A DNA stretch of 64,000 nt. Origin: an uncultured bacterium. Lineage in GTDB: Bacteria > Poribacteria > WGA-4E > WGA-3G. The notes beneath the pieces are model-generated. The model had not been told where the DNA came from, searched no databases, and was given only the letters and a program-made list of their open reading frames with translations. Positions 5,189 to 48,954 of this stretch are shown here, piece by piece; within the stretch, counting starts at the first letter, position 1; the number at the start of each line of letters is the position of its first letter. The DNA is taken from positions 30,253 to 94,252 of the forward strand of contig CAZGAW010000002.1 in NCBI GenBank assembly GCA_964523645.1. Reading direction: 5' to 3'. The position numbers and the translations under genes were made by a program.

Positions 5189-8100
5189 ATGTTACCCGTA
5201 TCACGCGCAATTTTTCCTTATTCATATTTATGTTATTTTTTTCTCCTCACGCTGAACCTGCCTGTCCAGCCTATAAACGCAGCCGATCACGAAGGCGTAG
5301 CAAATCCGCCGCTTCCAACGGCTAACGACTCAGGCAGCGAAACGCAAACATTAATATTCGGGACAACCTCAACAGAAACCTTCAGTTTTGAAGATGTTTA
5401 TCGCATAGAACTCAGTTTAAATGTATCGGGAAATATTGAAATCATTGCTACAGAGGATAATGCCATCGCCGTCACGCTTGAAAAACAGGCACAGGCTACA
5501 AACACAGAACAAGATGACCTGGTTCGCGATTATCTTGATAACATTACCTTGAGAGGAACGCGAAGTGATAACACACTCCAGTTAACGATACGACTGCCGG
5601 GAAATTCTCCTCAAACCGAACCAAACCCACTTTCTAATATAGGCGAATCACAAGCGATACGCTCTGATGGACTTCAACTGAAATGTACAATTAAAACCCC
5701 AGCGGATGTCGCTGTTAAACTCCAGGCAAAAGTTGGAGATATACACCTTCAGCGTATCCGAGGGAAGATAGAAGCTTCGACAGGGACAGGAAACGTCCAT
5801 TTAAGTGAAACCTTAGGCAACTATAACATCAGTGTAACCCAGGGCAACATTGACGGGAAAATTTTGCTGACCCACGGACAAAACAAGTTGGAAACCCAAA
5901 ATGGCGCAATTGGATTGGTAATACTTGACCGTGTTGCAGCACCCATGGATATAACCGCTCAAGGGGGCAGCATCCGTTTACGACTTCCTGAGAATTATGC
6001 TGCGGATGTTGAATTTGAGAGTGAGAAACAGCAAATCGTTATTAATTTGCCCGTACAACTGGACGAGGAAACCGGATTAACCCTTATTAACGACGGGGGT
6101 CCACTGTTCCGGTTGAAAGCCACCGACGCGATTTCTCTACTACCGAGTTCACCAGGCGGCGAAAACACACCCATAGATGCTGAAGCGGATCCATTCATAG
6201 ATGCCGTTCAACCTGTCCCACAAATAGCAGCCCACCCCACTATTGATGGCGATTTATCTGAAATCGCTTGGCAATCAGCCGCGCGACTCTCCCCGTTCCA
6301 AAATCCAGATGGTACTGATGTGCCAAACAATCCAACTGAAACTTTTTTAATGTGGGATGCCGAGAATTTTTATGTCGGTGTAAAAGCCTATCTGTCTGAT
6401 TCATATCTTCCGTATATCTCACAAACGCAGCAGGATTCACCAATTTGGGAGGACGAATGTATCGAAATCCTAATTGATTCTAATCCGGAAACTGATACCT
6501 ATTATCATCTTGTCATCAATCCAATTAACGCGTATTTTGACCAGCAGGTGAATACATCTGGCGAGCCCAATTTTCGGTTTGCACCTCATGATGTCCAACG
6601 GACTTTAAGCCAGAAAACAATGCAAACGGCGTTCAAAGCGGATAGCGCGTGGAACTCAGAGGCGAAAGTTGCCAGCCAAATTAACAGCACTTTTTGGAGT
6701 CTTGAAGTTTCACTTCCGCGTAAAATGTTAGAATCCGTTTCAAAAGTGGATTCGCAGCCGACATCCCCTTTTGAAAACAAGTGGCTTTTTAATATCCACC
6801 GTAAGATGCACAGTAGCAATATGAAGAGCCTTATACCTGCTACGTCCAGAGAATATAGTTACTGGCTGCCAATTTACGATAACGAGCATCCGTGGTGGCC
6901 GCATTCGCCACAAGAGTATACGGGACCGCTTTCAAAACGCAATGGACCCGCAATGGGTGTCTTAGAATTCATAGCGACCCCGCCTACCGCTGAAGATTTT
7001 GCATCCGAAACAAAATTTCAGGTTGCTGCTATTGAAATTAAAGGGAACACCACGATTCCAACAGAGGTCATCCAACAGTCACTTCCCATCCAACCTGGGG
7101 ATATTATCACAAGTCCGCAGCTTTCTTGGTTGATCGCGGAATTGGGGGAACAGGACCGGTTCCAAGACGTGCGTTTGGAAACTAAGCAGGTCAGTATTGA
7201 CAGTGAAGAAACCATTAACAGTCAGCAATCAGAAATCAGTAACCAGCAGGCAGGTGTGAATGCATCGGAAACCTCTGTACCGATGGCTGAAAACCGACAA
7301 TTGAAAGCCATTCCAAGTGTCAGTTTGCATATCCGAGTTACAGAAACCCTTGTGCTTTTTGTCGAGCAAATCGAGATCAAAGGAAATAGGAGTTTCCCTG
7401 CGCAATTCATTAAAGAGTGGTTTCAGTTAGAATCCGGCTATCTCGCTGTTGCAGTTGTTATACTAAAACAACAATTAATTGCTGATTTTTATTCAAATCG
7501 CGGATATGAATTCGCCACGGTTACGTATCAATCTACCGACAATGTACTTGAATTTAACGTCAACGAGGGAACATTGCACGAAATTCGTTTCACTGGTAAC
7601 ACGCAAATCTCGCGGGCGGAACTGTTGTCAGCACTTGACTTAAAGACTGAAGATAACGATGAAAAACAAGGTTCACAAACTTCGGATATCTACCATCATG
7701 CGCTTGGTCAATCGAAAATAAACCGTATGCGCAAAGAGCTCAGCGAAAACAGCGAACATTTCAGATCAATACGGGATTGGCGTGTTCAGCGCGAAGGTGG
7801 AAAAAACATCATGATTGTTGAAATTGAAGAACGTCCATTAGTGAGACCGGGGGGGTTCCCAATTCTTCAATTCAATCGTGTTCACGGGTTAATGCTTGGC
7901 GCGGGGGGAAGACTCTCGACGCATCTCACGGGTAAGGAACAGGTTTTCGGTTCAATAAGCCGTGGATTTTCGAGCAAAATATGGAACTATCACGCCGGTA
8001 TAGAAAAAGGGGTCCTTAAACGGCAGCCCCTCAGGTTCGGAGGTAGTTTCTATAAACTCACCGATATTAGCTCCAGCGTCTATTTGGGGCCTACTGAGGT

Positions 8101-34527: not shown

Positions 34528-36762
34528 CTATAGATTATAGAGAAACGTTACCTTAACAACAATAACCCGATTCTCCAATTGTAACGCACGACGAGGGGTC
34601 GTCCCAATGAGAGCATCACCCCAAGCCTCGTTATATGCAACGAAAAAATGACTTTTCGGACTATATTCCCATCCGAATAGAAGGCTAAGCAGATAACTCT
34701 GATGGATTTCGGTAGAAAGTGGACGTTCCCGGTTTGCCTGTGCAAACATTCGGAGAAACGATTCTCGCGTAAATAAGTAGGTCGCACGCAACGAACTAAC
34801 GAAAAACCTGCCATCAATTGCACCTTCCAAATCAAGACTCTGGGCGTAACTGCTGTCTAATTCTATGGAAAAGTTGCTCTGTGGACGTAAAGTCGATTGG
34901 AGCGTGATACCCCGTTGTCTGCCGGCTTGTTGTCGTGCAAAATTAAAATAGTCTGCGAAATCCATAGCGATACCGATAGCAATCGGATATGTGGCGTTGG
35001 TATCAAACTCAACCCCGTATCTGTTTGCCGTAAATACTTCAGTGAGTTCAACTTCCCGACTTCGAGTATAGTAGGCATTAATATCATCTAAGAGGATTTC
35101 CCTGAAATCCATTCCAAGGTCCGCCCCGACACTCCACCTGAGCAAATCTTCATCAAATTTAGGCGAAAGAGACAGTTCTGGGTTCTGTAACCCCCACTCC
35201 GTAAAATACAATGGTGTGTAAAGGCTTTGCGAAAGCCGGGTGGTTATACTGGAGAAAAATTGATGATTGCCCCAATGTGGGGAATAAGAGCCTCGCATAT
35301 AGACGCGCTGCCAGCCGCGATTCCGTTCTTTCCGTAGAAACCCTGTTTGGTTAATCTCAAAGTGGGGCGCGACCCGTTCAAATCCGATACCACTACTCCA
35401 GAGATAATTGCGCTGTGCGAAGTCAACAGTATACGCGGCGTTGTCGCTATCCTCGCCGGGATGAAAACTACCAGCGTATTGTCCGGTGAGATGATAGGTT
35501 TTACCCAAAGCGAGGTTCATATCAATACCACCCACTCGACTGTGTTCCCAATGATCACTGCCGGGCTGTTCCTTATTCACGAATAGGATTCCGACGTTCG
35601 AGCGTTTGAGGATGTCGCGTTTAACACGGATTGCAGAAAACCATGCTTCCTCCTTATCGGATGGCGTGCTATCAGAGAACCTGAATTCGCCTGTTTGGTT
35701 TCCCAAAACCCCGATAGAATAGTCACCAACTTTCCCCGTGAATTTACTGCCCCAAAGGATATTGCCACGGCTCCCGATACGACGGCTGAACATTAGATCG
35801 TATGGCGTTTCAAAGAAACTGTTGCCTTCAACAAAAAATGGACGTTTTTCTGGAAAACGCGTCGGGAATCGGGTCAGATTAATCTCTAACTGATCTGCTT
35901 CGACTTGTGCGAAGTCGGGATTGACAGTGACGTTCGCCTTTAAGGCACTCGTGAGGCTGTATTGCACATCCAACCCTGTTCCGAGTTGCCGCGTTAAATT
36001 AGAATCGGCGGCACGCATGCCGCCCCCTAAAAAATAAGGGGTGATTTCAAAATTCTTTCCCGTCTTAATCCCTTGGATACCTATAATATGCCCTAAATCG
36101 GACATCCGCGTGACGACACCCGCTTGGGTCAACTGTTTCCAGACTGTAACCTCACTTTTTCGGCGGTTTACTCGCTCAATGTCGAACCCCCAAATCTGTG
36201 TTGGCTTATCAGTGAACCGGAAGTTTGAAAACGGGATTTTGAACTCGGCACTCCACCCCAATTCATCAATATTGCTTTCAACCCACCAGATGCCTTTCCA
36301 GTTGCTGTCGCGTTGGGTGTCCTCATACCGATAATTATCACTCTGGACACCTGCTGGATTTGTGGCGAATTTATAGCCTGTACGGTGATCGTGGTGTGGA
36401 TCAATGAAGAAGGAGATGACATCCGAGGCATAGAGGTCCCCGCGTCGCGTCATCCGATTGATAATTTTGTTCGGTTCAGCGTCGTAACATCGGAATGCGA
36501 CATAGATGTTATGCACATCGTAAGCGATGCGGAATTCTGTGTCGTCAGTTGCTGGGTTCCCGCGTGACGGTTCGAGTTGAATAAAGCCGCTACGCGGTTC
36601 TGCCTGCTGCCATACCGCATCGTCCAACACGCCATCAATTTTTGGCGGTTCGCCTACAATTCGGTACGCTTCAATGACATGTTCACCCACACCTTCTGGG
36701 TGCGCAAAAAGGTATAGTGGATAGGCAATGAATAGCAGTAGTGCAGCTATAAATTTTAGCAT
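34528..36762 (-). CDS. CBM9-like + DUF5916-type outer-membrane protein
   Basis: IDGVLDDAVWQQAEPRSGFIQLEPSRGNPATDDTEFRIAYDVHNIYVAFRCYD N-terminal pattern; long beta-rich C-terminus ending in an aromatic-rich strand. Confidence 0.6.
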   Translation of the reverse strand: MLKFIAALLLFIAYPLYLFAHPEGVGEHVIEAYRIVGEPPKIDGVLDDAVWQQAEPRSGFIQLEPSRGNPATDDTEFRIAYDVHNIYVAFRCYDAEPNKIINRMTRRGDLYASDVISFFIDPHHDHRTGYKFATNPAGVQSDNYRYEDTQRDSNWKGIWWVESNIDELGWSAEFKIPFSNFRFTDKPTQIWGFDIERVNRRKSEVTVWKQLTQAGVVTRMSDLGHIIGIQGIKTGKNFEITPYFLGGGMRAADSNLTRQLGTGLDVQYSLTSALKANVTVNPDFAQVEADQLEINLTRFPTRFPEKRPFFVEGNSFFETPYDLMFSRRIGSRGNILWGSKFTGKVGDYSIGVLGNQTGEFRFSDSTPSDKEEAWFSAIRVKRDILKRSNVGILFVNKEQPGSDHWEHSRVGGIDMNLALGKTYHLTGQYAGSFHPGEDSDNAAYTVDFAQRNYLWSSGIGFERVAPHFEINQTGFLRKERNRGWQRVYMRGSYSPHWGNHQFFSSITTRLSQSLYTPLYFTEWGLQNPELSLSPKFDEDLLRWSVGADLGMDFREILLDDINAYYTRSREVELTEVFTANRYGVEFDTNATYPIAIGIAMDFADYFNFARQQAGRQRGITLQSTLRPQSNFSIELDSSYAQSLDLEGAIDGRFFVSSLRATYLFTRESFLRMFAQANRERPLSTEIHQSYLLSLLFGWEYSPKSHFFVAYNEAWGDALIGTTPRRALQLENRVIVVKVTFLYNL

Positions 36763-36814
36763 GCGTCAATTATAGTGGAAGTGTGCTGTGTTGTCAAATT
36801 TACTATTTTCTTTC

Positions 36815-36868
36815 CAGAGGGGTTTCAAACTCCTTATACTGACCGCCGACCGCTGATTGCTGACTGCC
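36815..36868. repeat. partial heptad element (CAGAGGGGTTTCAAACTCCT... ACTGACCGCCGACCGCTGATTGCTGACTGCC)
   Basis: Core hairpin plus 4-5 right-arm heptads. Confidence 0.6.
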
Positions 36869-37097
36869 GTTTTGTCGCTTTTCCTTGAAAAAATCGTTGA
36901 ATTCCTTTAAAATTCTTGAAATGTGGTTAGAGCAATGTGCCTATTTCTTTTTGGGTATAGCGGAATTCGAGAAAGGCACGTGAACCCCGAAGTCCACTTA
37001 AAGTTGTCCAAAGATTAGTCTTCATCGCATAACGCGCGTAACTCGTAACGAAATGGAGAGCGGATTCGAGAAAGGCGCGTGAAGCACAAACTCACGT

Positions 37098-37123
37098 CAT
37101 TTAACCGCAAGGAATAATTAAAA
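37098..37123 (+). promoter_or_regulatory. leader motif copy (TCATTTAACCGCAAGGAATAATTAAAA) directly before ATG
   Basis: CCGCAAGG-N12-ATG spacing as at 273 and 17708. A 25-bp direct repeat GCGGA(A)TTCGAGAAAGGC(A/G)CGTGAA occurs at 36960 and 37060 upstream. Confidence 0.6.
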
Positions 37124-37915
37124 ATGGTTGAACTTACACGGGAAGACATTGAATTTTTCAAAAATGAAGGGTATTTGGTGAAGCGAAACGTCCTGGACCC
37201 GGCATTGATGGAACGGGCACGGGCAAGACTCTGGGATGGTGCACCTGAAGGGCGTAAACGTGAGGACCCTGACACTTGGATAGGCCCCTTCACCCCTGAA
37301 GAGGAAAACATTGACAAAAACAACAACCGGCGCGGGTTCCGGTGGAACTTCCGTGAACCGGGTGGCGAAGATTGGATGGTTCAACTGCTCGCGACCGATC
37401 CAAACGTCTGGCGGATGGCTGAACAGTTTTTAGGTGAGGGAAATTTGGTGCAACCCGACCGTGTGCGTGGCATCTATTGCACGCTACCTTACGGCGATGT
37501 CCCGAAGAAATCGATCGGGTGTCACGTGGATGCGCATCCGTTTCATCTCGGTGCTGTCGGGTATATTGATGATGTGCCACCGGAAGGTGGCGGATTTACC
37601 GTTTGGCCAGGAAGCCATAAAACCTTCTATTACGATTACAATTCCCAATACAAGAACGAGCCGACACCGCAATACGAGATTGATCGTGAACGTCTCAGCA
37701 GAGAGTCAGGTGTTGAATGCTACGGGAACGCAGGGGATGTTGTCTTCTGGCACCATCGCATCGGTCATGCCGCCGGACATAACTATTCGCGACAGATCCG
37801 GCAGGCAGTTCTGTACGACTTCCGAAAGACGGAATTGGAGCAAACGCAGGAAGAGCCACCGAACGAGGATATGTGGCGAGATTGGCCCGGCATCAAGGCG
37901 TTGGAAAATTTTTAA
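37124..37915 (+). CDS. phytanoyl-CoA dioxygenase (PhyH)-family Fe(II)/2-oxoglutarate oxygenase
   Basis: LTREDIEFFKNEGYLV start, HVDAHP (HxD), distal HHRIGHAAGHN. Confidence 0.7.
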   Translation: MVELTREDIEFFKNEGYLVKRNVLDPALMERARARLWDGAPEGRKREDPDTWIGPFTPEEENIDKNNNRRGFRWNFREPGGEDWMVQLLATDPNVWRMAEQFLGEGNLVQPDRVRGIYCTLPYGDVPKKSIGCHVDAHPFHLGAVGYIDDVPPEGGGFTVWPGSHKTFYYDYNSQYKNEPTPQYEIDRERLSRESGVECYGNAGDVVFWHHRIGHAAGHNYSRQIRQAVLYDFRKTELEQTQEEPPNEDMWRDWPGIKALENF

Positions 37916-38078
37916 ATATACCTTGCGGGAGAACAACGCGGATTAGAACTTTGACGCACCTTGTTCTCAAGTCGCCTGCGCCGGTGTTGGAGGAAAAGGT
38001 CTGGCCCCAGCGTGTATTCAAAAACTTGAGTTCTTCCGAACTGTCTTTGGGGTTGATTGGTTGGGTCATAAGCGGAGC

Positions 38079-38098
38079 TGGCGTGGCGGTGGCCCTAA
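38079..38098 (+). repeat. 20-nt direct repeat, copy 1 (TGGCGTGGCGGTGGCCCTAA)
   Basis: 19/20 identical to 39895-39914. Confidence 0.8.
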
Positions 38099-38263
38099 TT
38101 AGAAATGAAGCCTAACAGTTGATTAGAATTGAGAACAGGGCGAGTGTCGTGAGGGAGAGGAGTATAGCGAACCGAAATAGCGTTGCCTTTTCCATTGACA
38201 AAACTTATCTTAACTTTGCGAAATTGTGGCCCAAATAAGCGTATGCACTACAGTTTTCATGTT

Positions 38264-38299
38264 AAAAAAAAAGGCGGCCCCACGTGAATAAAACCGCCT
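38264..38299 (-). terminator. rho-independent terminator of the 331-aa gene
   Basis: The minus strand reads AGGCGG-loop-CCGCCT followed by T9 (A-run 38264-38272 on the plus strand), 17 nt after the stop. Confidence 0.65.
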
Positions 38300-38315
38300 A
38301 TAAAAATAGTCTGGT

Positions 38316-39311
38316 TCAAGATTTAGGCAATCTGTTCCCCGTATTTTGTCTTAAAAGTTCATCTCTCACCTCTGCAATACGCTGTTTTAGCTCTTTTTCT
38401 ATGCTCATTCTTAACCATAGAAAATCATCTGAAGGAATTGCGTTCTTGAGTATTTTAGAACTGGCTTCTTCTGGGGGGAGTTTGAGATAATCAGGATCCT
38501 GACAACAATAGATAGCAATGGCATTTATACCATCTTTCACATGCCCCAGTGAATTCTCCTTAAAAAATCCAAGTTGACATATCCAGCGGACTGCACTACC
38601 ATAACTCATGTTCATGAGATGGCCAGATACACCGTAGTCATAAAACTCACATATCTCCCCCATAAAATTGTTCACAGTGTCCATCAAAGTTCTTAAATCA
38701 GAAACCATAAAAGAGTTAGAGTCGCCATATTCATATTTGTCATCAAGATGGGCGACCTTAGAATCGACATAATTCCAGAGATTTTTCATTGACTCTGCCG
38801 CCTTTATATGAGACTCAAGACGTTCTAAAAAGAGTGTAAACTCTTCGGTGTCTGCTTTGATGCTCGTATGCAAGTTACATATTTGGGTTTTTATCCTTTT
38901 CATAGAAATGGCTTTTCCAACCCCTGAAGATTTATCTGTTGTTAATTTCCGTAAGTTCACGAGTAAGGAATCGAAAGTTGATAATGTTAGATGTATCCAC
39001 AGAGGGGGATTCAGATCACGGAGGTCTTTATGATACTTAATTAAATCTTCTTCGGCGGCATGATAAGTTAAGTCAGACGGTTTTACATCCGCAAAGGCTA
39101 AGTATAGCCCGCGCTGATAATGCGCTATGAGAAATAGTTCCTTAAATTTCTTATACGATGAACTAAAGTCGCTTGCAAATTTCTGAATCTGCTTATCAAT
39201 GCTGTCAACCTTTTGGGGAGTTGCCTTTTGGCGAACGTCTTCATATTTAGCAATTATGTTCGCTTCAAGTTGTTCAAAATCTTCTGATTCCATATTTATG
39301 TCAAGTCTCAT
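38316..39311 (-). CDS. hypothetical all-helical protein, 331 aa, no recognisable family
   Basis: Long ORF in an A+T-rich segment, SD GGAAGG upstream, own terminator; no catalytic motif recognised by eye. Confidence 0.55.
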   Translation of the reverse strand: MRLDINMESEDFEQLEANIIAKYEDVRQKATPQKVDSIDKQIQKFASDFSSSYKKFKELFLIAHYQRGLYLAFADVKPSDLTYHAAEEDLIKYHKDLRDLNPPLWIHLTLSTFDSLLVNLRKLTTDKSSGVGKAISMKRIKTQICNLHTSIKADTEEFTLFLERLESHIKAAESMKNLWNYVDSKVAHLDDKYEYGDSNSFMVSDLRTLMDTVNNFMGEICEFYDYGVSGHLMNMSYGSAVRWICQLGFFKENSLGHVKDGINAIAIYCCQDPDYLKLPPEEASSKILKNAIPSDDFLWLRMSIEKELKQRIAEVRDELLRQNTGNRLPKS

Positions 39312-39340
39312 TAGGGTTTACCTTCCTTTGTTCTTGTAAT

Positions 39341-39368
39341 AGAGCGGTCCCACGCGAATAGAACCGCC
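39341..39368. repeat. second copy of the 38272-38299 hairpin (GAGCGGTCCCACGCGAATAGAACCGCCC)
   Basis: About 22/28 identical to AGGCGGCCCCACGTGAATAAAACCGCCT; the two copies bracket the 331-aa gene. Confidence 0.6.
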
Positions 39369-39894
39369 CTTTTCTATTTTCAGAGGGATCTCTACTTCAA
39401 AATCACCCTCACTGTTTTTCCAAGGCACCCCACGTCGTGCTGAGTTTTCGGCGGAGTATAGAAGGGGCCGATGGGGCAGATGTCTCGGGTTCGGGGAACA
39501 ACCAATCGCTTCACCGATTGAAAATCTGAAAAGGTTGGTAGCAACCCCAACGTGTAGACTTTCACCCCTGTTCCGAAGTATTACGCGCGCTACCGATACA
39601 TATTTAGAGTGGTGTCGCACTTCGCACTTACACCCGCACTACCGGGTCGGTTAGGACTCTGCTAGGGTGTGGCAGAGGTAGTGATTCCTAACCAAGTGCT
39701 TGATTACTATTAAGCCACACTTTCGGGGGAATGTCAAGTTTTTTTCAACAACACCCTACGCGCGTCCTTTCGCTTGTCGACGGCGCACACCGGGGCTGTT
39801 AGGGGCGGGCTGTCTTTATCGGTGCAGGTGTGGCTTTATTCACAAGCGTGCGGTGAAGTCTCAGATGGCATGTGTTGTGTGTCAACATAGCGAA

Positions 39895-39914
39895 ATGGCG
39901 TGGCGGTGGTCCTA
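39895..39914 (+). repeat. 20-nt direct repeat, copy 2 (TGGCGTGGCGGTGGTCCTAA)
   Basis: See 38079-38098. Confidence 0.8.
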
Positions 39915-40124
39915 AGTCTGATGACTTGCCTCATTTTTGACTTTTGTGTTATACTTTTCATTAACTTGGCGGATAGGAGTTTCACCTTGGCACCCCTCGT
40001 GTCGAGTCCTATCCAATCTCGTGAAACAGGTTGCATGCCAAATCGCCAAGGGAAGCCTAATTTGACATACTACTAACGGATAACTAATTATTGATCTGGC
40101 ACTTCACTCTATAGGAGAATTATC

Positions 40125-40982
40125 ATGAAAGAACCCCAATTTACTCAGCATCCAACGGAAATATTTGGTTATCCTTTTACTAACAAAAGCTCATACGCAC
40201 AAGAGGCGAGGGAAGAACAGTTCTGTCCCTTCTTAAAGGGTGAATGTAAAAAACCCCGAAAAAGTGAACCTGAAGTTAAAATTGGAACTTGCACACTTGG
40301 TTACAAAGGTAGTTTTCTCGAAAAGGTAACGCCTATTATTGTATGCCCTCATCGTTTTGAAGTAGCAGGTGTCTACAATACGATTCAGAAATTATATTTT
40401 GGCAATTTACCAGATGACTATCAGATAAGATGGGCATCTGAGGTATCTTGTGGAGGGGCAGGAAGTATTGATTTTGTCGCTGCCAAAATAAAAGGAGAGG
40501 AAATAGAGGATTTTCTATGTGTTGAAGTTCAAACGGCCGGGACCACTGGAACGCCTTGGGATGCAGTTACAGACTTTAAACAGACCGGAGGCTTTCAGGA
40601 GGAAAGCTATAACTATGGAATCAATTGGGCGAATCAGTTTATCAAAACAATGATGCAGCAGGTCTACAAAAAAGGGATGGTAATTACGAGTTGGGGCAAG
40701 AAAATTGTGTTTGTTATTCAAGATGTCGCACTCGCCTATATTCAGTCTACTACTGATACCCAGGATTTACATGAGGCAAGAGATAGTGATGCTATCCATT
40801 TTTGTACATTTCGGATGGTATGGGATGAAAATTCAAAGGCTTGGCAGCTGAAATTTGACCAGCAAGTGAGCACAGATATAGAAGGCATTCGGAAAATCTT
40901 AGGCGGGGCTCATGAAGATGAATTCCCCACCATCAGTGAGTTTGAAAATAATATCAATAGGCGATTAAATTTCCAAAGCTAA
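40125..40982 (+). CDS. type II restriction endonuclease, NotI-family-like
   Basis: N-terminal EIFGYPF...CPFLKGECKK...GTCTL...IIVCPHRF reproduces the Cys4 metal-site pattern and spacing of the NotI family; convergent with and overlapping a DNA methyltransferase. Confidence 0.6.
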   Translation: MKEPQFTQHPTEIFGYPFTNKSSYAQEAREEQFCPFLKGECKKPRKSEPEVKIGTCTLGYKGSFLEKVTPIIVCPHRFEVAGVYNTIQKLYFGNLPDDYQIRWASEVSCGGAGSIDFVAAKIKGEEIEDFLCVEVQTAGTTGTPWDAVTDFKQTGGFQEESYNYGINWANQFIKTMMQQVYKKGMVITSWGKKIVFVIQDVALAYIQSTTDTQDLHEARDSDAIHFCTFRMVWDENSKAWQLKFDQQVSTDIEGIRKILGGAHEDEFPTISEFENNINRRLNFQS

Positions 40983-42113
40983 TTGATCGAGATTTAACCG
41001 ATTTCTGGCAATTTCCGCATATTCTTCGCTTAACTCAATTCCAAGTCCCTGTCTATTAAGTTCATTCGCAGCCACTAACGTACTTCCTGTACCCATAAAG
41101 GGATCAAGGATAACGCTCCCAATTCTACTGGTCGCTTTAATCGGTAGCTCCAGTAGCTTTGTCGGAAAAACAGCGTAATGAACATCTTTTCTCCATTCAT
41201 CCTCTGGAACGATATTCCAAATATCACTCGGTAAATGTCCTTTAGCGGTGCTTGCCGTAATATAAAAACCTTTTGTCTTTAATTCCTTGGCACGTCCACT
41301 GACCTCCAAATTATCACTATGAAAGGTCCGTTGCTCACCTCTAATCGTCATTCTAAAATCAACTAACTCACCTTCTCTCATTCTTTCTAACGTCTCGTCA
41401 AGGGCTCTGATCGCCGCTGTGCGTTCTTGTTCATCTAATTCCTTAGACTCAAGAATCTGTCTACGGTATTTTTTCCCGCTGACGCCCGTGGCAGAAATAA
41501 CCTCTTTGCCATTTATTGATGGAAGTTTTTTCGGTTTAATCCTGACCCTGTCAGTATCGTAATAGTATCTCTTATTCTTAACAAAGTGAAATACATGTTC
41601 ATGGACATCTCTGAGTCTATCTTTCGCACTTTGCGTTCCTCTAATTTGATGCCATATCACATCATTCCTGAGAATCCATCCATCCTCCTGCATTGCGAGC
41701 GCAACCCGCCAAGGCATCCCCATCAGATTTTTGTTATGATATTTATCTCCTAAATTTAACCATACGGACCCATCCGGTTTTAATATTCTCTTTACCTGAA
41801 GGAAAATTCCAGCAAGTCTTTTCACATATTCTTCAGGTGTTTTTTCCTCACCAATCATCACATCAGTATCGTTTCCATTTGTGTGATATTTTCTCATTTG
41901 CCAGTACGGAGGTGAGGTAATGACGCAACCAATGCTCTCATCAGGGATTTCAGCCAAAATATCTTCACAATTCCCTATCAATACCCCATTTTTCTGATTT
42001 TCACTGAGGACCTTAGAAATTATCTGTTGATTTGTCATATTAATATTTCCTTCTGATTTTGGTAAGTTAGAATCTAATCCAACGTACTGTTTATCACTAA
42101 CACAATTGGTCAA
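40965..42113 (-). CDS. DNA methyltransferase, beta-class N4-cytosine/N6-adenine (N6_N4_Mtase type)
   Basis: Catalytic motif IV ITSPPYW near the N-terminus and AdoMet motif I ILDPFMGTGST near the C-terminus (beta-group order). Confidence 0.85.
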   Translation of the reverse strand: MTNCVSDKQYVGLDSNLPKSEGNINMTNQQIISKVLSENQKNGVLIGNCEDILAEIPDESIGCVITSPPYWQMRKYHTNGNDTDVMIGEEKTPEEYVKRLAGIFLQVKRILKPDGSVWLNLGDKYHNKNLMGMPWRVALAMQEDGWILRNDVIWHQIRGTQSAKDRLRDVHEHVFHFVKNKRYYYDTDRVRIKPKKLPSINGKEVISATGVSGKKYRRQILESKELDEQERTAAIRALDETLERMREGELVDFRMTIRGEQRTFHSDNLEVSGRAKELKTKGFYITASTAKGHLPSDIWNIVPEDEWRKDVHYAVFPTKLLELPIKATSRIGSVILDPFMGTGSTLVAANELNRQGLGIELSEEYAEIARNRLNLDQLALEI

Positions 42114-42221
42114 AATGTAGATTCCAGGATTTTCAGAGGGTTACCTCGTTATAGAATAGATGCCTCGTCCTACTGGAATAGGCGGTGGAGTGTTCCAGCA
42201 CCCCACCAACGAGGTCATACT

Positions 42222-42251
42222 ATTATACCATAAATCTAAAAGGATTCTCAA
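42222..42251 (-). promoter_or_regulatory. sigma70-type promoter (TTGAGA-18 nt-TGg TATAAT) for the methyltransferase
   Basis: The reverse complement reads TTGAGAatccttttagatttatggTATAAT, about 105 nt upstream of ATG 42113. Confidence 0.5.
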
Positions 42252-42420
42252 GAAAAATCAATGCCCATCTGAGGCATCCAGCGGGCTAGCGGTGTACCTG
42301 CTGCGTCGCGGGCTGCACGAATGTCGATCCCATTTTCTCGTGGTTCGTTTTCGTCAAAATGTTCCAGTCTTACCCATTGGATTTTGAGATCATGTCAGCA
42401 GTATGTTCAAGTTCTTCCGA

Positions 42421-42708
42421 TTAAACTTCAATGACCGATACTCCCTTCTCTGTGATTCTCCAGTGACCTCCGATAAAGCCATAAACATACTTATCAGCTT
42501 CAAGAAGGTCAAGAATGCCAGGAATCAAACGATTTTTTCCGTATAGGTGCCGCGGTATGTCAAGCTGTTCGCAGATTTCTTTCTGGGTCAAGGTTTCTCT
42601 ATGCTCACCTGTAGAATCTAAAGGTTGTTGATATAACACCAATAGCACTGCCCGCTTGAGTATTTCTAACCCGTAAGCGGCAAACTCGTTTCGTGTGTTG
42701 TTATTCAT
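42421..42708 (-). CDS. small winged-helix-like DNA-binding protein candidate
   Basis: 95 aa; LTQKEICEQLDIP...GILDLLEADKYV resembles a wHTH; located between the HNH-like and MTase genes. Confidence 0.4.
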   Translation of the reverse strand: MNNNTRNEFAAYGLEILKRAVLLVLYQQPLDSTGEHRETLTQKEICEQLDIPRHLYGKNRLIPGILDLLEADKYVYGFIGGHWRITEKGVSVIEV

Positions 42709-42911
42709 AAATCCACTTTTCCCCTTCCCCCGATATGCCGAGGTTCTTCTGACCTGAGCATTCCCCCCTAAAAAGAGCAGGGTGAGGATTGAAGAGCCAA
42801 TCCGACCTATCTGGGTGTTATGTGCGAGTCGTAAGCCAGTTCTCGACCGTCTTTATGAGTTCTGACATATTTCTTAAGTATCTTGTCATCGCAGATTTTT
42901 TGTTCAGAATA

Positions 42912-43406
42912 TCATTTGCCATATCTATCATATAAAACCTTTGCCTTCTGATAATCAATAAGGCAACTACCATGAGGAATAGCCGTTACAAACTGTCGGA
43001 TCTCTGCAGGAGAGAAAGACCAGTTAGAAGGAAGGTTTAACTTCCTTTTAGCAAGTCCATCTGCCGAGTTGCAGTCTCCACAAATAACAGTCTCTAAAAA
43101 ACGATCCAATGTTGAATGATCATGATGCCTTGTAAGAGAAGCAATCCATCCCCAGAAAACTTTACCTCCTGGCTTTCGTTTCGTCCAGCGTAGGATCTCA
43201 CGTTTATTTCTACCACATCCAGGACAAAACCAAGATTCAGGGGTTTCCTTCCAAAGGATCGGGCAATGTCCTCCATCATAGTTTTGGTATTCACTGTCTG
43301 TGGGAATACGCTGATGTTTCATCAAGAGGTCCTTCGGTGGAAAATCAGTCAGCAGTATTGAGCACCTTGAGCAACTCGTTGGAAGAATGGCGGGGGCGTT
43401 AGACAT
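42912..43406 (-). CDS. HNH / endonuclease VII-like zinc-finger nuclease candidate
   Basis: FCPGCGR ... LTRHHDHS ... ICGDCNSADG gives the CxxC...HxDH...CxxCN pattern of the T4 EndoVII/HNH superfamily. Confidence 0.5.
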   Translation of the reverse strand: MSNAPAILPTSCSRCSILLTDFPPKDLLMKHQRIPTDSEYQNYDGGHCPILWKETPESWFCPGCGRNKREILRWTKRKPGGKVFWGWIASLTRHHDHSTLDRFLETVICGDCNSADGLAKRKLNLPSNWSFSPAEIRQFVTAIPHGSCLIDYQKAKVLYDRYGK

Positions 43407-43430
43407 CCAAAAAAAACTGTTGGACCCACC

Positions 43431-43637
43431 TTAGCTGAAAAGCGATGCTTCATTTCGGCATTGCAGCAAGGGCATTCCGTGCGAGATATTTGTGAAATCC
43501 TCGGTGTCAACCGGGGCAGTTTCTATTATCAACCCAAAGAAGATCCGTCCGAAGCGGTTCTGCTCGCTGAAATAGAGAAACTTTCGGGACTGTACTGCCA
43601 TCGGTTTTTTAGACCACTGTCTAAACCAAGATTGTGA
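43431..43637 (+). pseudogene. IS3-family transposase OrfB 5' fragment
   Basis: Translation ...GHSVRDICEILGVNRGSFYYQPKEDPSEAVLLAEIEKLSG resembles the HTH_21 / N-terminus of IS3 OrfB; no start, truncated, and no DDE domain follows. Confidence 0.5.
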
Positions 43638-43668
43638 GACAATACAATCTACTTGAAAGGAGCATCCG

Positions 43669-43860
43669 ATGGCGAAACGCAAACGAAGAAACTTCACCCC
43701 CCAGTTTAAAGCGGAGGTTGTTCTGGAGGCTCTCCGCGGTGAAAGTTCGCAAGCAGAGCTGTGTCCTCAACATAACCTCAGCGATGAACAACTCTCGAAG
43801 TGGAAGCAGCAAGTCGTTGAAAATATGACATCTGTGTTTGTCTCATGTAGGTCGGTGTAG
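43669..43860 (+). pseudogene. IS3-family OrfA (HTH_Tnp_1) fragment
   Basis: MAKRKRRNFTPQFKAEVVLEALRGESSQAELCPQHNLSDEQLSKWKQQVVE is the canonical IS3/IS911 OrfA N-terminus; it is truncated and sits after, not before, the OrfB fragment. Confidence 0.65.
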
Positions 43861-43869
43861 AATGCAGCT

Positions 43870-44691
43870 TTATCTCAAACCCAATTCCTTCAATGTGCTT
43901 GCCATCATATCATGAGCAATCTGTGCCTTCTCCATCCGCATGTGTGGGAACGTTTCCACGGATATATACTTATCGTAACCGACTTTCCCTAAACTCTCCG
44001 CAAAGGTTCGGAAATCCAGTTCATCTCCGTCTTCACCCGGAATCAAAAAAGTACTATACGGATACATGCCTGTCACGCCTTTTACATGGCAGTGCGTCGT
44101 GAGCGGTCCCAATTTTTCGGTAACTTCGGCGATGTCTTCACCGATATGATAGAAATTGGTGATGTCGTTGAGGGACCTCAGCGCGTCAGAACCGACGTGT
44201 TCAATCAGAAGCGTAACTTTGGAAGAGGCATCGATTGTCGTCGCTTCGTGATTGTGGATGTTCATTGTAATGCCGAGTTCTTCAGCGCGTTGACAGATCG
44301 GTTTCAGCACGTTAACGAGGAGTCGCCATGCGAAGGCATCACCGTTCTCGCCACCGTATCCAGTGAGGAAGTTAACACCACCTGCCCCAAGTGCAACGGC
44401 TACATCTTGCAGCAGCGCGTAATGGTCAACTGCGCGCTGTTGATCCTCCACCGCCAATTGGTATAGACCGCCGCCAGTAAACGGATTAATAACAGAGACT
44501 TTTAATCCGCTGTCAGCTACCATCGTTTTAACTTCCTTAAGCAAGCCGTCGGTGACTTCACCGGAGGGGATATGCGCTTCGGGACCGCACATCATCTCGA
44601 TTGCATCGTAGCCAGCATCGGCGAGAATCGTAATAACTTCTTGTAGGGGAATGTCTTTCATCCCGCCTGCGTGATAAGAGATACCAATCAC
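43870..44691 (-). CDS. sugar phosphate isomerase/epimerase (xylose-isomerase-like TIM barrel)
   Basis: 273 aa; AGYDAIE, NIHNHE..T and VKG..H pattern of the AP_endonuc_2 family. Confidence 0.7.
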   Translation of the reverse strand: MIGISYHAGGMKDIPLQEVITILADAGYDAIEMMCGPEAHIPSGEVTDGLLKEVKTMVADSGLKVSVINPFTGGGLYQLAVEDQQRAVDHYALLQDVAVALGAGGVNFLTGYGGENGDAFAWRLLVNVLKPICQRAEELGITMNIHNHEATTIDASSKVTLLIEHVGSDALRSLNDITNFYHIGEDIAEVTEKLGPLTTHCHVKGVTGMYPYSTFLIPGEDGDELDFRTFAESLGKVGYDKYISVETFPHMRMEKAQIAHDMMASTLKELGLR

Positions 44692-45216
44692 TGTTATTCC
44701 TCCTTTACTTGTTCACTTTTTGTTCTTCCCGTTATATCCCAGATATGTACAATCCCGTTAACGTGGCCACTGGCGAGCGTAATACTATCAGGATGTGTGT
44801 ATTCTTGAGCATATTTCTTAGGTTAATACGAGGCATCCGTTAGCAATATGAATATGGCTTTATCCGCAATGTAGAGTAGGAGCACATCAAATGCCGCGCA
44901 GATCAACACAATTAACACGAAAATCCATTTCTTCCGTTTCAAAGTCTGTCCGGGCAGTCTGTCGCTCCTGCACCATCGAATACGTTCGCGGACGGATCGT
45001 CTCAGCCTCATTGCTTTCTCCTTTCAAGGACAGCGTGGACACTTTGTTACCCTTATAGAGACTTCTCCGATTAAAAAGATAGGAGAAAGCAACTTTAGCA
45101 GCAGGAAAATAAAAACGCTGAATCCGTTTGTAGGTGCAGCGATTATATTTCACCGCCTACCTTCAAAAGAATTTGAACGTTAGGTTCATTCAGATTCAAC
45201 TTGTTTTCCGGTGGAT

Positions 45217-46110
45217 TCATCGTTCCCTGACAAAGAGCGAACCTTCCTGCGTCGCGCATATAAGTTTTTCGCCATCTGCTGAAAATGTTAATTCTCGGAT
45301 GGGACTCTCTTGGACTGGGAACATGGATACTGGCTTACCATCACTTACATCCCATAACTGAATGTAGTTATCTCTCCCGCCGCTTACAAGTAGCTCTCCA
45401 TCGGTAGAGAATGCCAAGGCGTTGACTGAATCAGTATGCCCCCTGAATATCGTGAGTAAATGCTTGCTTTCCAAATTCCACAATTTCACAAGTGTGTCCG
45501 AACCGCCGCTCACCAGCGTCTCACTTTCAGGTGAAAATGCCAAAGCCAAAACAAGTCCATCATGTGCCGAGAAAGTAGACAGCAGCCCGCCCGTTTCAAC
45601 TTCCCACAAACGAATCTTACCGTCCGCACTTCCACTGGCGAGTGTTGTTCCATCCGGTGAAAATGCCAAACTTCTAATGCGCCCTGGGGCTTCCGTAGAA
45701 GAAGCGAGCAACCGTTCCGTGCGCGGATCCCATCCGGGGAGTGGAACGCCATCGGGTGAAGATGATGCTAACGCGTTCACCAGATTAGAATCCCCGGCAA
45801 GTGTTAGCACTTCGCGCGCCGTGGCGGTATCCCAGAGTCGGAGCGTGTTATCTTCACTTCCACTGGCAAGCAGCGAATTGTCTGGCGCGAATGCCAATGC
45901 CCGCATGTGTTCGGTATAACCTGAGAGCATCGCAAATTGCGCGCCACTCTCTGTGTCGTATATCCAGATACGTCCATCACCCCCCGCGGCGAGCCGTGTG
46001 CCATCTGGCGAGAAAGTGATAGCCATTACTTGCTTTTTATCGAACCTCGTTTTGAGTCCCGGAGGTAACTCAGATGGGATACTGTTCTGAAACAGTTCTA
46101 TTTTTTCCAT
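45217..46110 (-). CDS. WD40-repeat protein
   Basis: Repeats ending LASGSEDNTLRLWD, LASGSADGKIRLWE, LVSGGSDTLVKLWN and LVSGGRDNYIQLWD. Confidence 0.85.
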   Translation of the reverse strand: MEKIELFQNSIPSELPPGLKTRFDKKQVMAITFSPDGTRLAAGGDGRIWIYDTESGAQFAMLSGYTEHMRALAFAPDNSLLASGSEDNTLRLWDTATAREVLTLAGDSNLVNALASSSPDGVPLPGWDPRTERLLASSTEAPGRIRSLAFSPDGTTLASGSADGKIRLWEVETGGLLSTFSAHDGLVLALAFSPESETLVSGGSDTLVKLWNLESKHLLTIFRGHTDSVNALAFSTDGELLVSGGRDNYIQLWDVSDGKPVSMFPVQESPIRELTFSADGEKLICATQEGSLFVRER

Positions 46111-46223: not shown

Positions 46224-47291
46224 TTAAAGTGAAGAATTCCAATCCAAAACGACGCCTGTGTATATATTCGGTTCATTGAGGAGACCGTCATAAGCCTGTT
46301 TAATCTGATCGGGTTTGAGACGATGCGAAATTAGAGGTTCAACGTGCAATTTTCCGCGTGCCATCCAATCAAAGATCGTCTGCTGTTTGCTCCATTGCGA
46401 AGTGCGATTCCCGATGTCCGGGTACATCGGCACACACCACTCCAATGCCCCACGGATTGTAATCCATCGCAGATGCGTTTCGGAAAGCAGGTCGGTCAGG
46501 TTGCCTTGAACTTCGACGCGCGGTGAACCGAGAATAATCAGTTGTCCGTGGTTAGCGGTAGCACGGAGTGCTTGCATAACGACACCGCTGTGTCCGACGG
46601 CATCGACGGTGATATTACCGAGTTCACCGCCCGTAATTTCCTCAACCTCTGCTTGCGCCTCGTCAGCAGTACCGCCGACGGTATGATTAATTCCACACCG
46701 CTGTGCGAGTTTTCGCCGCGCTGCTACCGGATCTACACCGATCACGCGGCATCCATGAATTTGAAACATCTGTGATGCCAGATTGCCAACAAGCCCTAAC
46801 CCGAAAACAACAACCCAAGGATTCGTACCGATTTCTCCAACGACAATCGCGGTCATCGCAACACCTGCCATTCGCGATGCCGCAACGACAGCAGGATCCA
46901 CGGTTTCTCTAACAGGAGCGACCAGCCGATCTTGTGAGTATCGGATTGTCGAGGCGTGCCGTCCGTATGTGAAAACCCGATCGCCGGGTGCTGCACGGTT
47001 AACACCCGCACCCACTTCTCGCACAATGCCGACGTTCGCGTAACCAGAACGCCACGGATATTCGCACCATGCCCCCTTTTGGAACACTTTTGGCTCTCTC
47101 CCGGTATAATTTGCGAGTTCTGTGCCACTACTGATAAAAGTATATTCTGTGTCTATCAGTAATTCATTGGAAGCGAGTACCGGCGCGTCTATATCCGCAG
47201 TCTGCAGCTCGACTTGGTTCTGACCCGTTACAACAACCTCTCTTATTTTGATACTCCCACGCCTAAAGTCGTGGGATTCTTGTTTCTTCAT
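46224..47291 (-). CDS. MDR-superfamily dehydrogenase with an N-terminus apparently supplied by the adjacent IS end
   Basis: VFGLGLVGNLASQ Rossmann motif and GDRVF; ATG 47291 has SD GGAGG 6 nt upstream; ORF-track start is 47330. Confidence 0.65.
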   Translation of the reverse strand: MKKQESHDFRRGSIKIREVVVTGQNQVELQTADIDAPVLASNELLIDTEYTFISSGTELANYTGREPKVFQKGAWCEYPWRSGYANVGIVREVGAGVNRAAPGDRVFTYGRHASTIRYSQDRLVAPVRETVDPAVVAASRMAGVAMTAIVVGEIGTNPWVVVFGLGLVGNLASQMFQIHGCRVIGVDPVAARRKLAQRCGINHTVGGTADEAQAEVEEITGGELGNITVDAVGHSGVVMQALRATANHGQLIILGSPRVEVQGNLTDLLSETHLRWITIRGALEWCVPMYPDIGNRTSQWSKQQTIFDWMARGKLHVEPLISHRLKPDQIKQAYDGLLNEPNIYTGVVLDWNSSL

Positions 47292-47335
47292 TCGTAGCCT
47301 CCCTGTGGAGGTCTTACACAAACTCCACAAGCGTT

Positions 47336-48427
47336 TTACTTCTCCGTGTAGCCCACGGCGAGGTTCTTTAGATTTATCGCAGCGTTTTGGTCTCTGTCTA
47401 TAGACTTATAGCAGAAATCACAATTGAATTGACGCTCTGATAAGGATAGTTCGTCTTTTACATATCCACAACTGCTACACGTTTTACTGGACGCAAAGAA
47501 TTGTGGGGATTCTATAACAGGTATTCCAAGCACTTCTGCTTTGGATTTGAGTTTAGAGAGAAAACCGCCTAATGCTGAATCTGATAGGGCTTTGGCAAGT
47601 TTTCTATTTTTGAGCATATTGGTAATCATAAGCGTTTCTATTCCGATCACACTTGCCATGTTGACTATTTCTGTAGTCGCTTGCTGGTGTGCGTCCTCAC
47701 GGATACAAGCAATGCGATAATGTAGTTTTGCCACTCTTTCTTTTTGCTTATACCAGTTATTAGATAGAAATTTCTTACGACTTAACTTGCGTTGCTCACG
47801 GGCAAGTTTTCTCTCAAAGCGTTTGAGTGGTCTTGGATTATCATAGTGTTTACCGTTATCAAGGGTGGCAAGTGAGTTGATACCTACGTCTATGCCGATA
47901 ATAGGGAGTCCGCGTGTATCACGGGGAGTGTTTGGTGTTCCTGTGTCAACAGTTATAGAGACAAACCACCTCTGTGCCATCTTGGATAGGGTAACACGGA
48001 TAATCTTACCTTCAAAACGCAACTCTTGAAACATTTTGACCCAACCGATTTTGGGCAACTTGATACGCTTTCCGTCTATTCTTACTGCCTGTTCGTCTGT
48101 GGTATAAGATAGTTTGTGTCCACGTTTCTTATACTTTGGAAACCCGCTGATTTTATTTGACCAACGGCTTATACTGTTCGCTAATGCCTTAATAGCATAT
48201 AAGCCCGCACGCTGGTCTTGTGCTTTTGCCCACTCATATTCCTTTTTCTGTTTATTCCAACGATTATTTAAATCAACTTCGGAACGGAATTCGTTAGACT
48301 CTAACCCACTTTTAAAATCAGAGAGTCCATTATTATAGGCAAAGCGAGCATAACCGCATTGACTATGAAACCAGTGCTCTTGAACGCTATTTGGGCGTAA
48401 CGCTATTTTGTGAGACTTGTGTGCCAT
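47336..48427 (-). CDS. tnpB: TnpB (IS605 OrfB-family RNA-guided nuclease)
   Basis: IGIDVGINS (RuvC-I), zinc finger CSSCG...CDFCY, DRDQNAAINL (RuvC-III); N-terminal HKIALRPN...FHSQCGYARFAYN is typical of OrfB_IS605. Confidence 0.85.
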   Translation of the reverse strand: MAHKSHKIALRPNSVQEHWFHSQCGYARFAYNNGLSDFKSGLESNEFRSEVDLNNRWNKQKKEYEWAKAQDQRAGLYAIKALANSISRWSNKISGFPKYKKRGHKLSYTTDEQAVRIDGKRIKLPKIGWVKMFQELRFEGKIIRVTLSKMAQRWFVSITVDTGTPNTPRDTRGLPIIGIDVGINSLATLDNGKHYDNPRPLKRFERKLAREQRKLSRKKFLSNNWYKQKERVAKLHYRIACIREDAHQQATTEIVNMASVIGIETLMITNMLKNRKLAKALSDSALGGFLSKLKSKAEVLGIPVIESPQFFASSKTCSSCGYVKDELSLSERQFNCDFCYKSIDRDQNAAINLKNLAVGYTEK

Positions 48428-48519
48428 TTTGGGTATTACCTATTCTGTGAAGTTTCCTATTCCCTCTGCTAAAGGCGTGGCGGGTATTAGCAGTACCCAC
48501 CACTGAATAGGTAACATAA

Positions 48520-48547
48520 TTATACCACAAAATGCACCTAAAGTCAA
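48520..48547 (-). promoter_or_regulatory. sigma70 promoter inside the IS left end (TTGACT-16 nt-TGg TATAAT) driving tnpB
   Basis: The reverse complement reads TTGACTtaggtgcattttgtggTATAAT, about 90 nt upstream of ATG 48427. Confidence 0.6.
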
Positions 48548-48624
48548 ACTTTTTTTCGGTGTCGGTAGACTCCCAACTGGGTTGGACCCACAGCTAAAGC
48601 AGTGGGATTGTTAGACAATGCCCT

Positions 48625-48954
48625 TCATGGTGAATCTTTTTCTTCTAATTCTTTTAATTCTTCCTGCTTAATCTTATGAATCAGTGCTTGCATCCGTTTG
48701 TATCTGAAAAGCCCAACGAAGAAAGTCGCAATGCCGAGTAAAATGAAGATGATACCGATTATCTCAACGATATACGAACTAAAGATCTCTTTGAGATGCA
48801 CAAAGGATAAGCCTGCAACGAACAGCGTTAGCGCCGTACGAATGTAGGCAAGGAAAGTCCGCTCATTCGCGAGGATAGTTCGGTCTGCAGCGAGATGATC
48901 CCGCAAAATAAGTTGGTCTTCCAGTCCTTTGTAAGGCGTTGGTTTATCTGACAT
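48625..48954 (-). CDS. DUF202 (YidH-like) membrane protein
   Basis: LRDHLAADRTILANERTFLAYIRTAL is the DUF202 signature; two further TM helices. Confidence 0.6.
   Translation of the reverse strand: MSDKPTPYKGLEDQLILRDHLAADRTILANERTFLAYIRTALTLFVAGLSFVHLKEIFSSYIVEIIGIIFILLGIATFFVGLFRYKRMQALIHKIKQEELKELEEKDSP

Follow-up and report, generated by a model that had tools for sequence, protein, structure and literature searches.

The 64-kb stretch of DNA analysed here (the window) very probably carries, at positions 37916-43869, a strain-specific and horizontally assembled defence islet, a mosaic of separately mobile modules with a spacer that holds two promoter-leader units. A NotI-family restriction-modification (R-M) pair and a solitary HEPN/AbiU2-like gene of 331 amino acids (aa) diverge from this spacer. 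Relatives of the 331-aa protein and the genome loci used for comparison, given here as L-numbers, belong to Candidatus Poribacteria, which are sponge symbionts. The first-pass annotation had described positions 38079-43860 as an A+T-richer, horizontally acquired defence or mobile island and had singled it out as the most promising part of the window for an undescribed defence function. The first part was supported, as the whole 5.95 kb is an insertion with defence or mobile gene types. The protein content appears ordinary, judging from family assignments, and no undescribed protein defence system emerged; the undescribed item was an RNA element in the stretch that had been called gene-free.

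37916..43869, no strand, 5,954 bp: whole strain-specific insertion (defence islet), from the empty site in L019 and L020, the flank alignment and G+C content

The insertion was delimited by two loci that lack it. In L019 (a 6.08-Mb contig), a PhyH orthologue 93% identical to that of the window is followed directly by the TIM-barrel gene (273 aa), with 96 nucleotides (nt) between them. The same order was found in L020 (a 27-kb contig), where the PhyH orthologue is 82% identical and the TIM-barrel gene (273 aa) follows after 59 nt. DNA alignment of both loci to the window stopped at 37905 and restarted at 43872. Because L019 and L020 join PhyH to the TIM-barrel gene and the flanks align only outside, the entire 37916-43869 interval is an insertion, its left edge just past the PhyH stop codon and its right edge (43869) just before the TIM-barrel stop codon. 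This is the arrangement that had been predicted for island-free genomes. The lower G+C content was also borne out, at 42.5% in 38079-43860 versus 46.9% for the remainder of the window; only 3 of 583 segments of equal length were as low, and the value lies ~3.5 standard deviations under the mean. For the full insertion the figures were 42.8% and 46.9% elsewhere. Within the island G+C was uneven, with 38-42% in the genes and 51% in an inner non-coding piece (39370-39895). No tRNA gene was found in the window and no integrase in the island. The edges have no bounding direct repeats: both copies of a 20-nt repeat are internal, and the right edge shows transposase fragments only.

All of the open reading frames (ORFs) that the first-pass annotation had listed for the island were present, and hidden Markov model (HMM) searches upheld its gene list. 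The larger proteins all fall in known families, including the one that had been listed as an unknown 331-aa protein.

38316..39311, minus strand: solitary HEPN/AbiU2-like gene, 331 aa, predicted abortive-infection RNase (PF18734 match)

The 331-aa protein matched HEPN_AbiU2 (PF18734) with 28.0 bits, the curated cut-off being 26.8, and 8 of the 16 members of its family matched the same model (best E 5.1e-11). Sixty-four relatives were found at 66-80% identity, followed by a gap down to 31%, and the named ones are all Poribacteria. An exhaustive HMMER pass over 1.84 billion representatives gave only four full-length clusters of the family, and it was not found in viral contigs or in JGI metagenome contigs. 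The AF2 model of the protein was all-helical (pLDDT 79.6).

DNA homology of this gene to other genomes ends within ~20 nt of the ORF (38298-39332), and its neighbours differ in every context compared, as follows.

L015: Type ISP R-M enzyme and DDE transposase; duplicated as L018, that copy frameshifted
L016: DUF4268 genes
L036: Ymh-type HEPN gene
L037: DUF2806 and DUF5677 genes
L025: SacI-like R-M pair, on a 44.7-kb contig encoding ParA, an RHH protein and a tyrosine integrase

The L025 contig appears to be a circular plasmid, because its name ends in '_c' (names of chromosomal contigs end in '_l') and it has ParA and integrase genes. No partner conserved across contexts was found for the 331-aa gene, nor for two smaller genes of the island, one of 95 aa and one EndoVII-like. 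Synonymous divergence (dS) of the AbiU2-like gene was 0.13-0.33, with a ratio of nonsynonymous to synonymous divergence (dN/dS) of 0.51-0.65 over six pairs, whereas the flanking PhyH and TIM-barrel genes gave dS >1.2 and dN/dS 0.03 against the closest relative. Its synonymous divergence is 4-10 times below that of these core genes, and because of this difference in dS the AbiU2-like gene must have spread among Poribacteria far later than the lineages split. The high dN/dS points to relaxed or diversifying selection, as is often seen in defence and selfish genes. The L015 copy was also observed to lie in a 2.95-kb duplicate (L015 6700-9649 and L018 6700-9648) of 99.97% identity, the two copies standing 2.5 Mb apart in one Poribacteria chromosome. 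The duplicate holds the DDE transposase, the AbiU2-like gene and a truncated GFO_IDH gene, and the AbiU2-like copy of L018 is frameshifted near codon 58.

The AbiU2 HEPN family was listed in R-M operons by Anantharaman et al. 2013, who predicted RNase-based abortive infection for it (PMC3710099). From this family prediction we propose that the 331-aa protein would act as an abortive-infection RNase and back up restriction as a second layer. The arrangement in the window fits the HEPN-plus-R-M combinations described there, with a solitary AbiU2-family HEPN gene, predicted to encode an RNase of abortive infection, beside an R-M pair. It differs in that the Pfam match is marginal and the canonical Rx4-6H motif is not visible, in that the AbiU2-like gene is divergent from the R-M pair and not in its operon, and in that the subfamily is essentially restricted to Poribacteria, with dN/dS of ~0.6.

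40125..40982, plus strand: NotI-family type II restriction endonuclease (REase), 285 aa (PF12183, PADLOC REase_II)
40965..42113, minus strand: beta-class N4-C/N6-A DNA methyltransferase (MTase); gene callers use the ATG at 42038 (357 aa) (PF01555, PADLOC)

The 285-aa REase matched PF12183 (NotI) with 30.9 bits (cut-off 22) and PADLOC REase_II with E 6.2e-12, and shares 30-32% identity, across 88% of its length, with plasmid-borne REases annotated as NotI-family (tblastn E 2e-30). The MTase matched PF01555 (N6_N4_Mtase) with 171 bits and PADLOC MTase_II with 245 bits; its motif order, SPPY and then DPFMGTGST, is that of the beta class, and the nearest solved structures were 2zie and the N4-cytosine MTase 8s9n. 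The two genes are convergent and overlap by 18 nt. By homology they make up an ordinary type II R-M system, which would cut incoming unmethylated DNA. As in NotI-family type II systems (PF12183 plus PF01555), both HMMs score over the cut-off, the genes are adjacent and convergent, the REase has four N-terminal cysteines (C34, C41, C56 and C74), and SPPY precedes the FxGxG motif of the MTase. The system of the window differs in having no controller protein; a structured leader precedes the REase gene instead. A PADLOC search of the island proteins, as the first-pass annotation had proposed, matched the R-M pair and no other protein.

Short palindromes were observed to be strongly avoided in the window: GGCC occurred 30 times versus 164 expected, CTAG 9 versus 96, and GATC 176 versus 320, while GACGTC, CATATG, GGCGCC and AGCGCT had zero occurrences in the 64 kb. 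This suggests, from sequence counts, long exposure to many R-M systems. The avoidance spans the whole window, was called genome-wide, and is not assignable to the NotI-family pair.

The AbiU2-like and REase genes diverge from a 0.8-kb spacer (39312-40124) in which the following features were placed.

39926..39955, plus strand: promoter-like site for copy A, TTGCCT-18 nt-TG-n-TATACT (promoter scan)
39964..40055, plus strand: leader RNA element copy A, facing the REase gene (locus comparison, model R1, folds)
39965-70/40045-50: helix P1 of copy A
39971-78/40007-14: helix P2 of copy A
39979-85/40021-27: helix P3 of copy A (pseudoknot)
39986-92/40000-06: helix P4 of copy A
40016-19/40028-31: helix P5 of copy A
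39706..39739, minus strand: promoter-like site for copy B, TTGACA-18 nt-TTAATA (read from the sequence)
39608..39700, minus strand: leader RNA element copy B, facing the AbiU2-like gene (model R1, 75.8 bits, as a training sequence)

A pseudogene was rejected as the content of the spacer, as stops occur in all six frames and there was no Pfam match at E up to 5. No tRNA or tmRNA was found in it, and it had no homologues in phage or plasmid records. A search of 36000-46000 against Rfam 15 gave no match at E up to 1, bar a weak sub-threshold match to Ocean-VII outside the spacer (41423-41451, 17.3 bits, E 0.3), and a search of 39560-40110 gave only sraL noise (E 4.7).

The copy A element recurs in L021, ahead of a 1372-aa gene, and in L025, ahead of a 463-aa gene; the extended -10 sequence TGnTATACT of its promoter is kept in both. 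In L025 the 463-aa gene is followed by a hairpin and then by the AbiU2-like gene. Copy B was detected as an inverted copy within the spacer (39705-39631) by an nhmmer profile of the three other copies (E 0.04), before it had entered any model. Its promoter-like site was not among the results of the consensus promoter scan; the spacing from promoter to element is the same as in copy A, L025 and L021. In all four instances the element begins 8-10 nt downstream of the -10 box. The L021 copy (6474-6689) was observed to have a ~130-nt insertion in the P4 loop and to lie directly downstream of an EndoVII-like gene, with a homologue of the 95-aa protein 2 kb upstream.

The minimum free energy (MFE) folds of copies A, B and L025, each made from the single sequence, independently shared one layout (z -2.4, -3.0 and -3.5, respectively): a closing helix P1, a helix P2 that encloses hairpin P4, and a small hairpin P5. 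Single-sequence folding gave P5 for B and L025, and for copy A it was taken from the RNAalifold consensus; RNAalifold by itself recovered P2, P4 and P5. The P5 loop can pair with the 5' part of the P2 loop, which is otherwise unpaired; the result is a seven-pair helix P3 (a kissing or pseudoknot interaction). P3 differs in each copy and is complementary in all of them (GTTTCAC/GTGAAAC, GTTCTAA/TTAGAAC, GTCTCAA/TTGAGAC and CACTACC/GGTAGTG), and P2 covaries as well (GGATAGGA/TCCTATCC, GGACAGGG/TCCTGTCC and GGTTAGGA/TCCTAACC). Counted on an unfitted MAFFT alignment, where P1 and P3 of copy B are shifted by one column, 88.7% of cells pair, versus 78% in shuffles and 33-48% with slid partners. Twelve pairs are changed on both sides, and none of 500 shuffles attained any of the five measures. 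The structure is well supported, but with four sequences, two of them from one spacer, the family is thinly sampled.

Two tandem heptamers stand at the end of each copy (TGCCAAA and CGCCAAG in copy A, AAGTGCG twice in copy B), and the P1 5' strand could pair with either one. We infer that the spacer holds two back-to-back units of a promoter and a ~93-nt pseudoknotted leader, and that transcription of each of the two facing genes would start in its unit, whose leader would form the 5' end of the mRNA. Because either of the two heptamers can pair with the 5' end, the leader may set mRNA stability or expression through this alternative pairing.

Two hairpins and the two copies of the 20-nt repeat stand around the AbiU2-like gene, in the order repeat, hairpin, gene, hairpin, repeat.

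38079..38098, plus strand: 20-nt direct repeat copy 1, TGGCGTGGCGGTGGCCCTAA (2 copies in 64 kb)
38272..38299, minus strand: hairpin hp1 with T-run, intrinsic terminator of the AbiU2-like gene (terminator scan; -14.9 kcal/mol, z -3.5)
39342..39369, minus strand: hairpin hp2, 30 nt upstream of the AbiU2-like start, without T-run (-16.7 kcal/mol, z -4.9)
39896..39915, plus strand: 20-nt direct repeat copy 2, 19/20 match (2 copies in 64 kb)

The repeat had been taken as one boundary of the island. It is real, as no match was obtained in 100 shuffles, but it bounds something smaller: both copies are internal and bracket the AbiU2-like module only. The repeat does not extend past 20 nt. The 20-mer was not found in L025 or in the other loci, except in contigs of the same strain, and was not found in viral contigs. 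Hairpin hp1 is a 22/28 copy of hp2. Both stand around the AbiU2-like gene in the window only; they are lacking in L015 and L016, and in L025 a single hairpin, with the hp2 sequence, lies at the equivalent upstream place with its interior inverted. A genome-wide REP element was rejected as an explanation, as there are just these two hairpins in the window and one in L025; the hairpin pattern was not found in metagenome contigs.

Between the first repeat copy and hp1, Logan contigs from four sponge samples were observed to break at or beside 38204-38233 (L001-L003 end at 38233, L007, L008 and L010 at 38204, and L006 at 38223), and contigs from three other samples read through this interval. The breaks are consistent with a repeat or a strain variant there. 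Window positions 38212-38269 were also observed to match L016 10397-10456 at 78%.

Several points weigh against the reading of the islet given above. The AbiU2 assignment of the 331-aa protein is weak, at 28.0 bits against a cut-off of 26.8, and its AF2 model had no significant neighbour in the PDB (best Foldseek match E 0.28). The Rx4-6H motif of HEPN RNases was not visible in the alignment of the family, a check made without residue-level alignment to the Pfam model, so that the register is unproven. The invariant residues are N119, R121, K122, L123, D126, H148 and H188; R121 is followed by D126 and not by a histidine, and R164-x3-H168 is not kept in distant members. A dN/dS near 0.6 is also compatible with relaxed constraint, and one homologue (L018) is frameshifted. 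The leader rests on four sequences, two of them in the window. A search of the window and of 21 other loci with model R1 brought up no additional copy, and the pattern was found neither in viral contigs nor in phage and plasmid records. It is missing in 6 of the 8 AbiU2-like contexts. Copies A and B lie 70 and ~300 nt from the start codon and do not overlap a ribosome-binding site, and because of this distance the leader may be a stub of a decayed mobile element.

The explanation that follows from this last point, and that survives best beside the one preferred here, is that decay of tnpB-type (IS200/IS605) or PATE-like mini-elements, inserted between the two defence genes, left the two promoter-leader units behind as left-end stubs, whose part in the expression of these genes would be accidental outward transcription at most. 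We regard it as possible, if on balance unlikely. A tnpB element at ~47253-48635 of the window, missing from L019, has a leader that by its predicted pairing has the same architecture as the island elements. Like them it is ~90 nt long and directly follows a sigma-70-like promoter, and its parts are a closing helix (P1) with two alternative tandem heptamers, a hairpin inside it and a loop pseudoknot of 7 bp. Two GAAUAGG heptamers are alternative partners for its 5' strand, ACCUAUUC, and a UUAGCAG further downstream can base-pair with the loop of its hairpin, CUGCUAA. The tnpB leader (48425-48514, minus strand) was observed to fold with z -4.6. The stub explanation would also account for the similarity and direct orientation of hp1 and hp2 around a cargo gene, as at IS200/IS605 ends, for the sequence TCCCACG that both share with the tnpB end hairpin, for the presence of the repeat core GGCGTGGCGG in the tnpB leader hairpin, and for the distance of the elements (70-300 nt) from the start codons of the genes they face, to whose ribosome-binding sites they are not fused.

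Against it, model R1 scores the tnpB leader with 8 bits, and because of this low score sequence homology, and with it common descent, is not demonstrable. The spacer was searched in every frame, and no tnpB remnant, omega-RNA-like tail or Pfam match came up. In L015 and L016 the AbiU2-like gene stands without the hairpins, and in L025 the single hairpin is inverted. All four instances of the leader face a gene 70-300 nt downstream, and none of these is tnpB. They head the REase gene, the AbiU2-like gene and two other non-tnpB genes, in which they differ from the tnpB leader. Because all four copies point at a nearby non-tnpB gene, a portable module that serves several kinds of nuclease genes is preferred to a decayed tnpB stub. 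As a further and rather doubtful proposal, the ~93-nt element could belong to a class of portable 5' leader RNAs not described before in the Poribacteria mobilome, one common to tnpB elements and defence genes (REase, HEPN/AbiU2). Such a leader would act as a two-state switch and set the dose of a nuclease that might be toxic to its own cell, for instance when the gene has just entered a new host.

The 20-nt repeat raises the alternative that 38099-39915 (the AbiU2-like gene, the hairpins, leader B and the spacer) is a small integrase-less integrative cassette that entered a pre-existing R-M islet through site-specific recombination at a 20-nt site, the two copies being attL and attR. A repeat of this match around a 1.8-kb module is not expected by chance, the closest homologue of the cargo lies on the plasmid-like contig L025 that encodes a tyrosine integrase, and the contig breaks of four samples suggest alternative paths in the population. 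However, the repeat sequence was confined to the strain, as given above, and a variant with an empty site did not turn up. The distance from the contig breaks to the repeat is 105-135 nt, and the repeat may be a mere relic of leader-like sequence. We consider the cassette improbable. No integrase and no attC-like R'/R'' boxes, as expected of an integron cassette, were seen in the island.

ToxIN and CptIN loci have a promoter, a structured pseudoknot RNA, a hairpin and an RNase gene in that order. The order in the window resembles theirs, and leader, hairpin and AbiU2-like gene recur in that order in L025, though with the 463-aa gene in between; yet a type III-like toxin-antitoxin system, in which the leader RNA neutralises a HEPN toxin and hp2 limits read-through, is very improbable, as there is no tandem RNA array (Tandem Repeats Finder gave two trivial 7-9-nt repeats only), the same RNA heads the unrelated REase gene and the 1372-aa gene of L021 without a nearby AbiU2-like gene, hp2 has no U-tract, and most RNase homologues, in 6 of 8 contexts, are without the RNA.

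The preferred reading, a mosaic islet with portable promoter-leader units, also takes in the right part of the island, where two small genes and transposase debris were found.

42421..42708, minus strand: possible winged-helix protein, 95 aa (MarR_2, 13.6 bits only)
42912..43322, minus strand (ORF to 43406, 164 aa): EndoVII/HNH-like zinc-finger protein, 136 aa (conserved motifs)
43431..43637, plus strand: transposase-type helix-turn-helix fragment (HTH_23/HTH_28, ~23 bits, below cut-off)
43669..43860, plus strand: IS3-type OrfA N-terminal fragment, 63 aa (HTH_Tnp_1, 46 bits; NCBIfam transpos_IS3, positions 1-46 of 369)

The winged helix-turn-helix (wHTH) assignment of the 95-aa protein is weak; its homologue in L021, 38% identical, matched Mrr_N at 15.5 bits. 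A role as controller of the R-M system was rejected for it, since its gene shares a strand with the MTase gene, lies behind a terminator-like hairpin of its own, and does not encode an Xre-type protein. A conserved pair of wHTH and EndoVII-like genes was also rejected, since relatives of the latter stand in varied neighbourhoods (AbiTii or DUF4268 genes) and a wHTH homologue is found 2 kb away in L021 only. Neither gene has a demonstrable tie to the other modules.

Relatives of the EndoVII-like 164-aa ORF begin at its Met29, which gives a protein of 136 aa. The motifs WxCPGCGR, HHDH and CxxCNSADG are kept in 23 relatives, of which 2 matched PF02945 (Endonuclease_7; E 1.7e-5); the protein of the window had no PF02945 match at E up to 0.1. 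IMG/VR viral contigs carry 10 relatives. The closest copy, in L021, is 80% identical in DNA across the ORF only, with dN/dS 0.39. In the predicted model (pLDDT 95, pTM 0.87) HHDH lies at a strand end and CxxCN at the start of the next helix, and no Foldseek neighbour was found at E up to 0.001 in PDB or BFVD. The protein resembles T4 endonuclease VII and other HNH beta-beta-alpha-Me nucleases (PF02945) in its CxxC...HHDH...CxxCN motifs, its small size and its relatives on phage contigs. It differs in falling below the family match, in having no PDB or BFVD neighbour, and in a C-terminal half (SFSPxEIRQF...PH) peculiar to its own family, and its model may show an elaborated HNH fold that has not been described before.

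The two pieces of IS3 debris that had been claimed at the right edge were recovered as two helix-turn-helix transposase fragments. Profile searches of the translations gave no DDE domain with either. Because only an OrfA N-terminal part and a second helix-turn-helix fragment are present, these pieces are debris and not an element, and they mark the right edge of the island.

Outside the insertion, L019 was observed to have three extra genes (295 aa, Band_7/SHOCT of 388 aa, and 204 aa) between DUF5916 and PhyH (L019 6750-9660 versus window 36763-37123). Because these genes are missing from the window, PhyH is variable on both sides, and the PhyH/TIM-barrel locus is, as far as the compared loci indicate, a hot spot for variable genes. 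Three PemK-toxin genes in a row, each with a small upstream partner, were also observed in L019 (17869-20798), ~7 kb from the syntenic site. Upstream of PhyH in the window there is a 30-nt direct repeat (36965-36994 and 37064-37093), and an 80-nt stretch before the PhyH start (37044-37125) matches three gene-upstream sites in L016 at 81-85%. This stretch could be a further promoter or leader element that recurs in Poribacteria.

The island is an ordinary case of sponge symbionts stacking defence genes in chromosomal hot spots. It also gives a clean example of single defence genes that move as sharply bounded cassettes among Poribacteria, with L025 as a probable plasmid-like vehicle. A covarying leader RNA that is absent from Rfam stands before both a restriction enzyme gene and a HEPN gene, in a seemingly empty spacer. 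If this leader does control nuclease expression, it would be a new RNA-based way for mobile restriction and abortive-infection genes to spare a new host, and it would tie the regulation of defence genes to the leaders of TnpB transposons.

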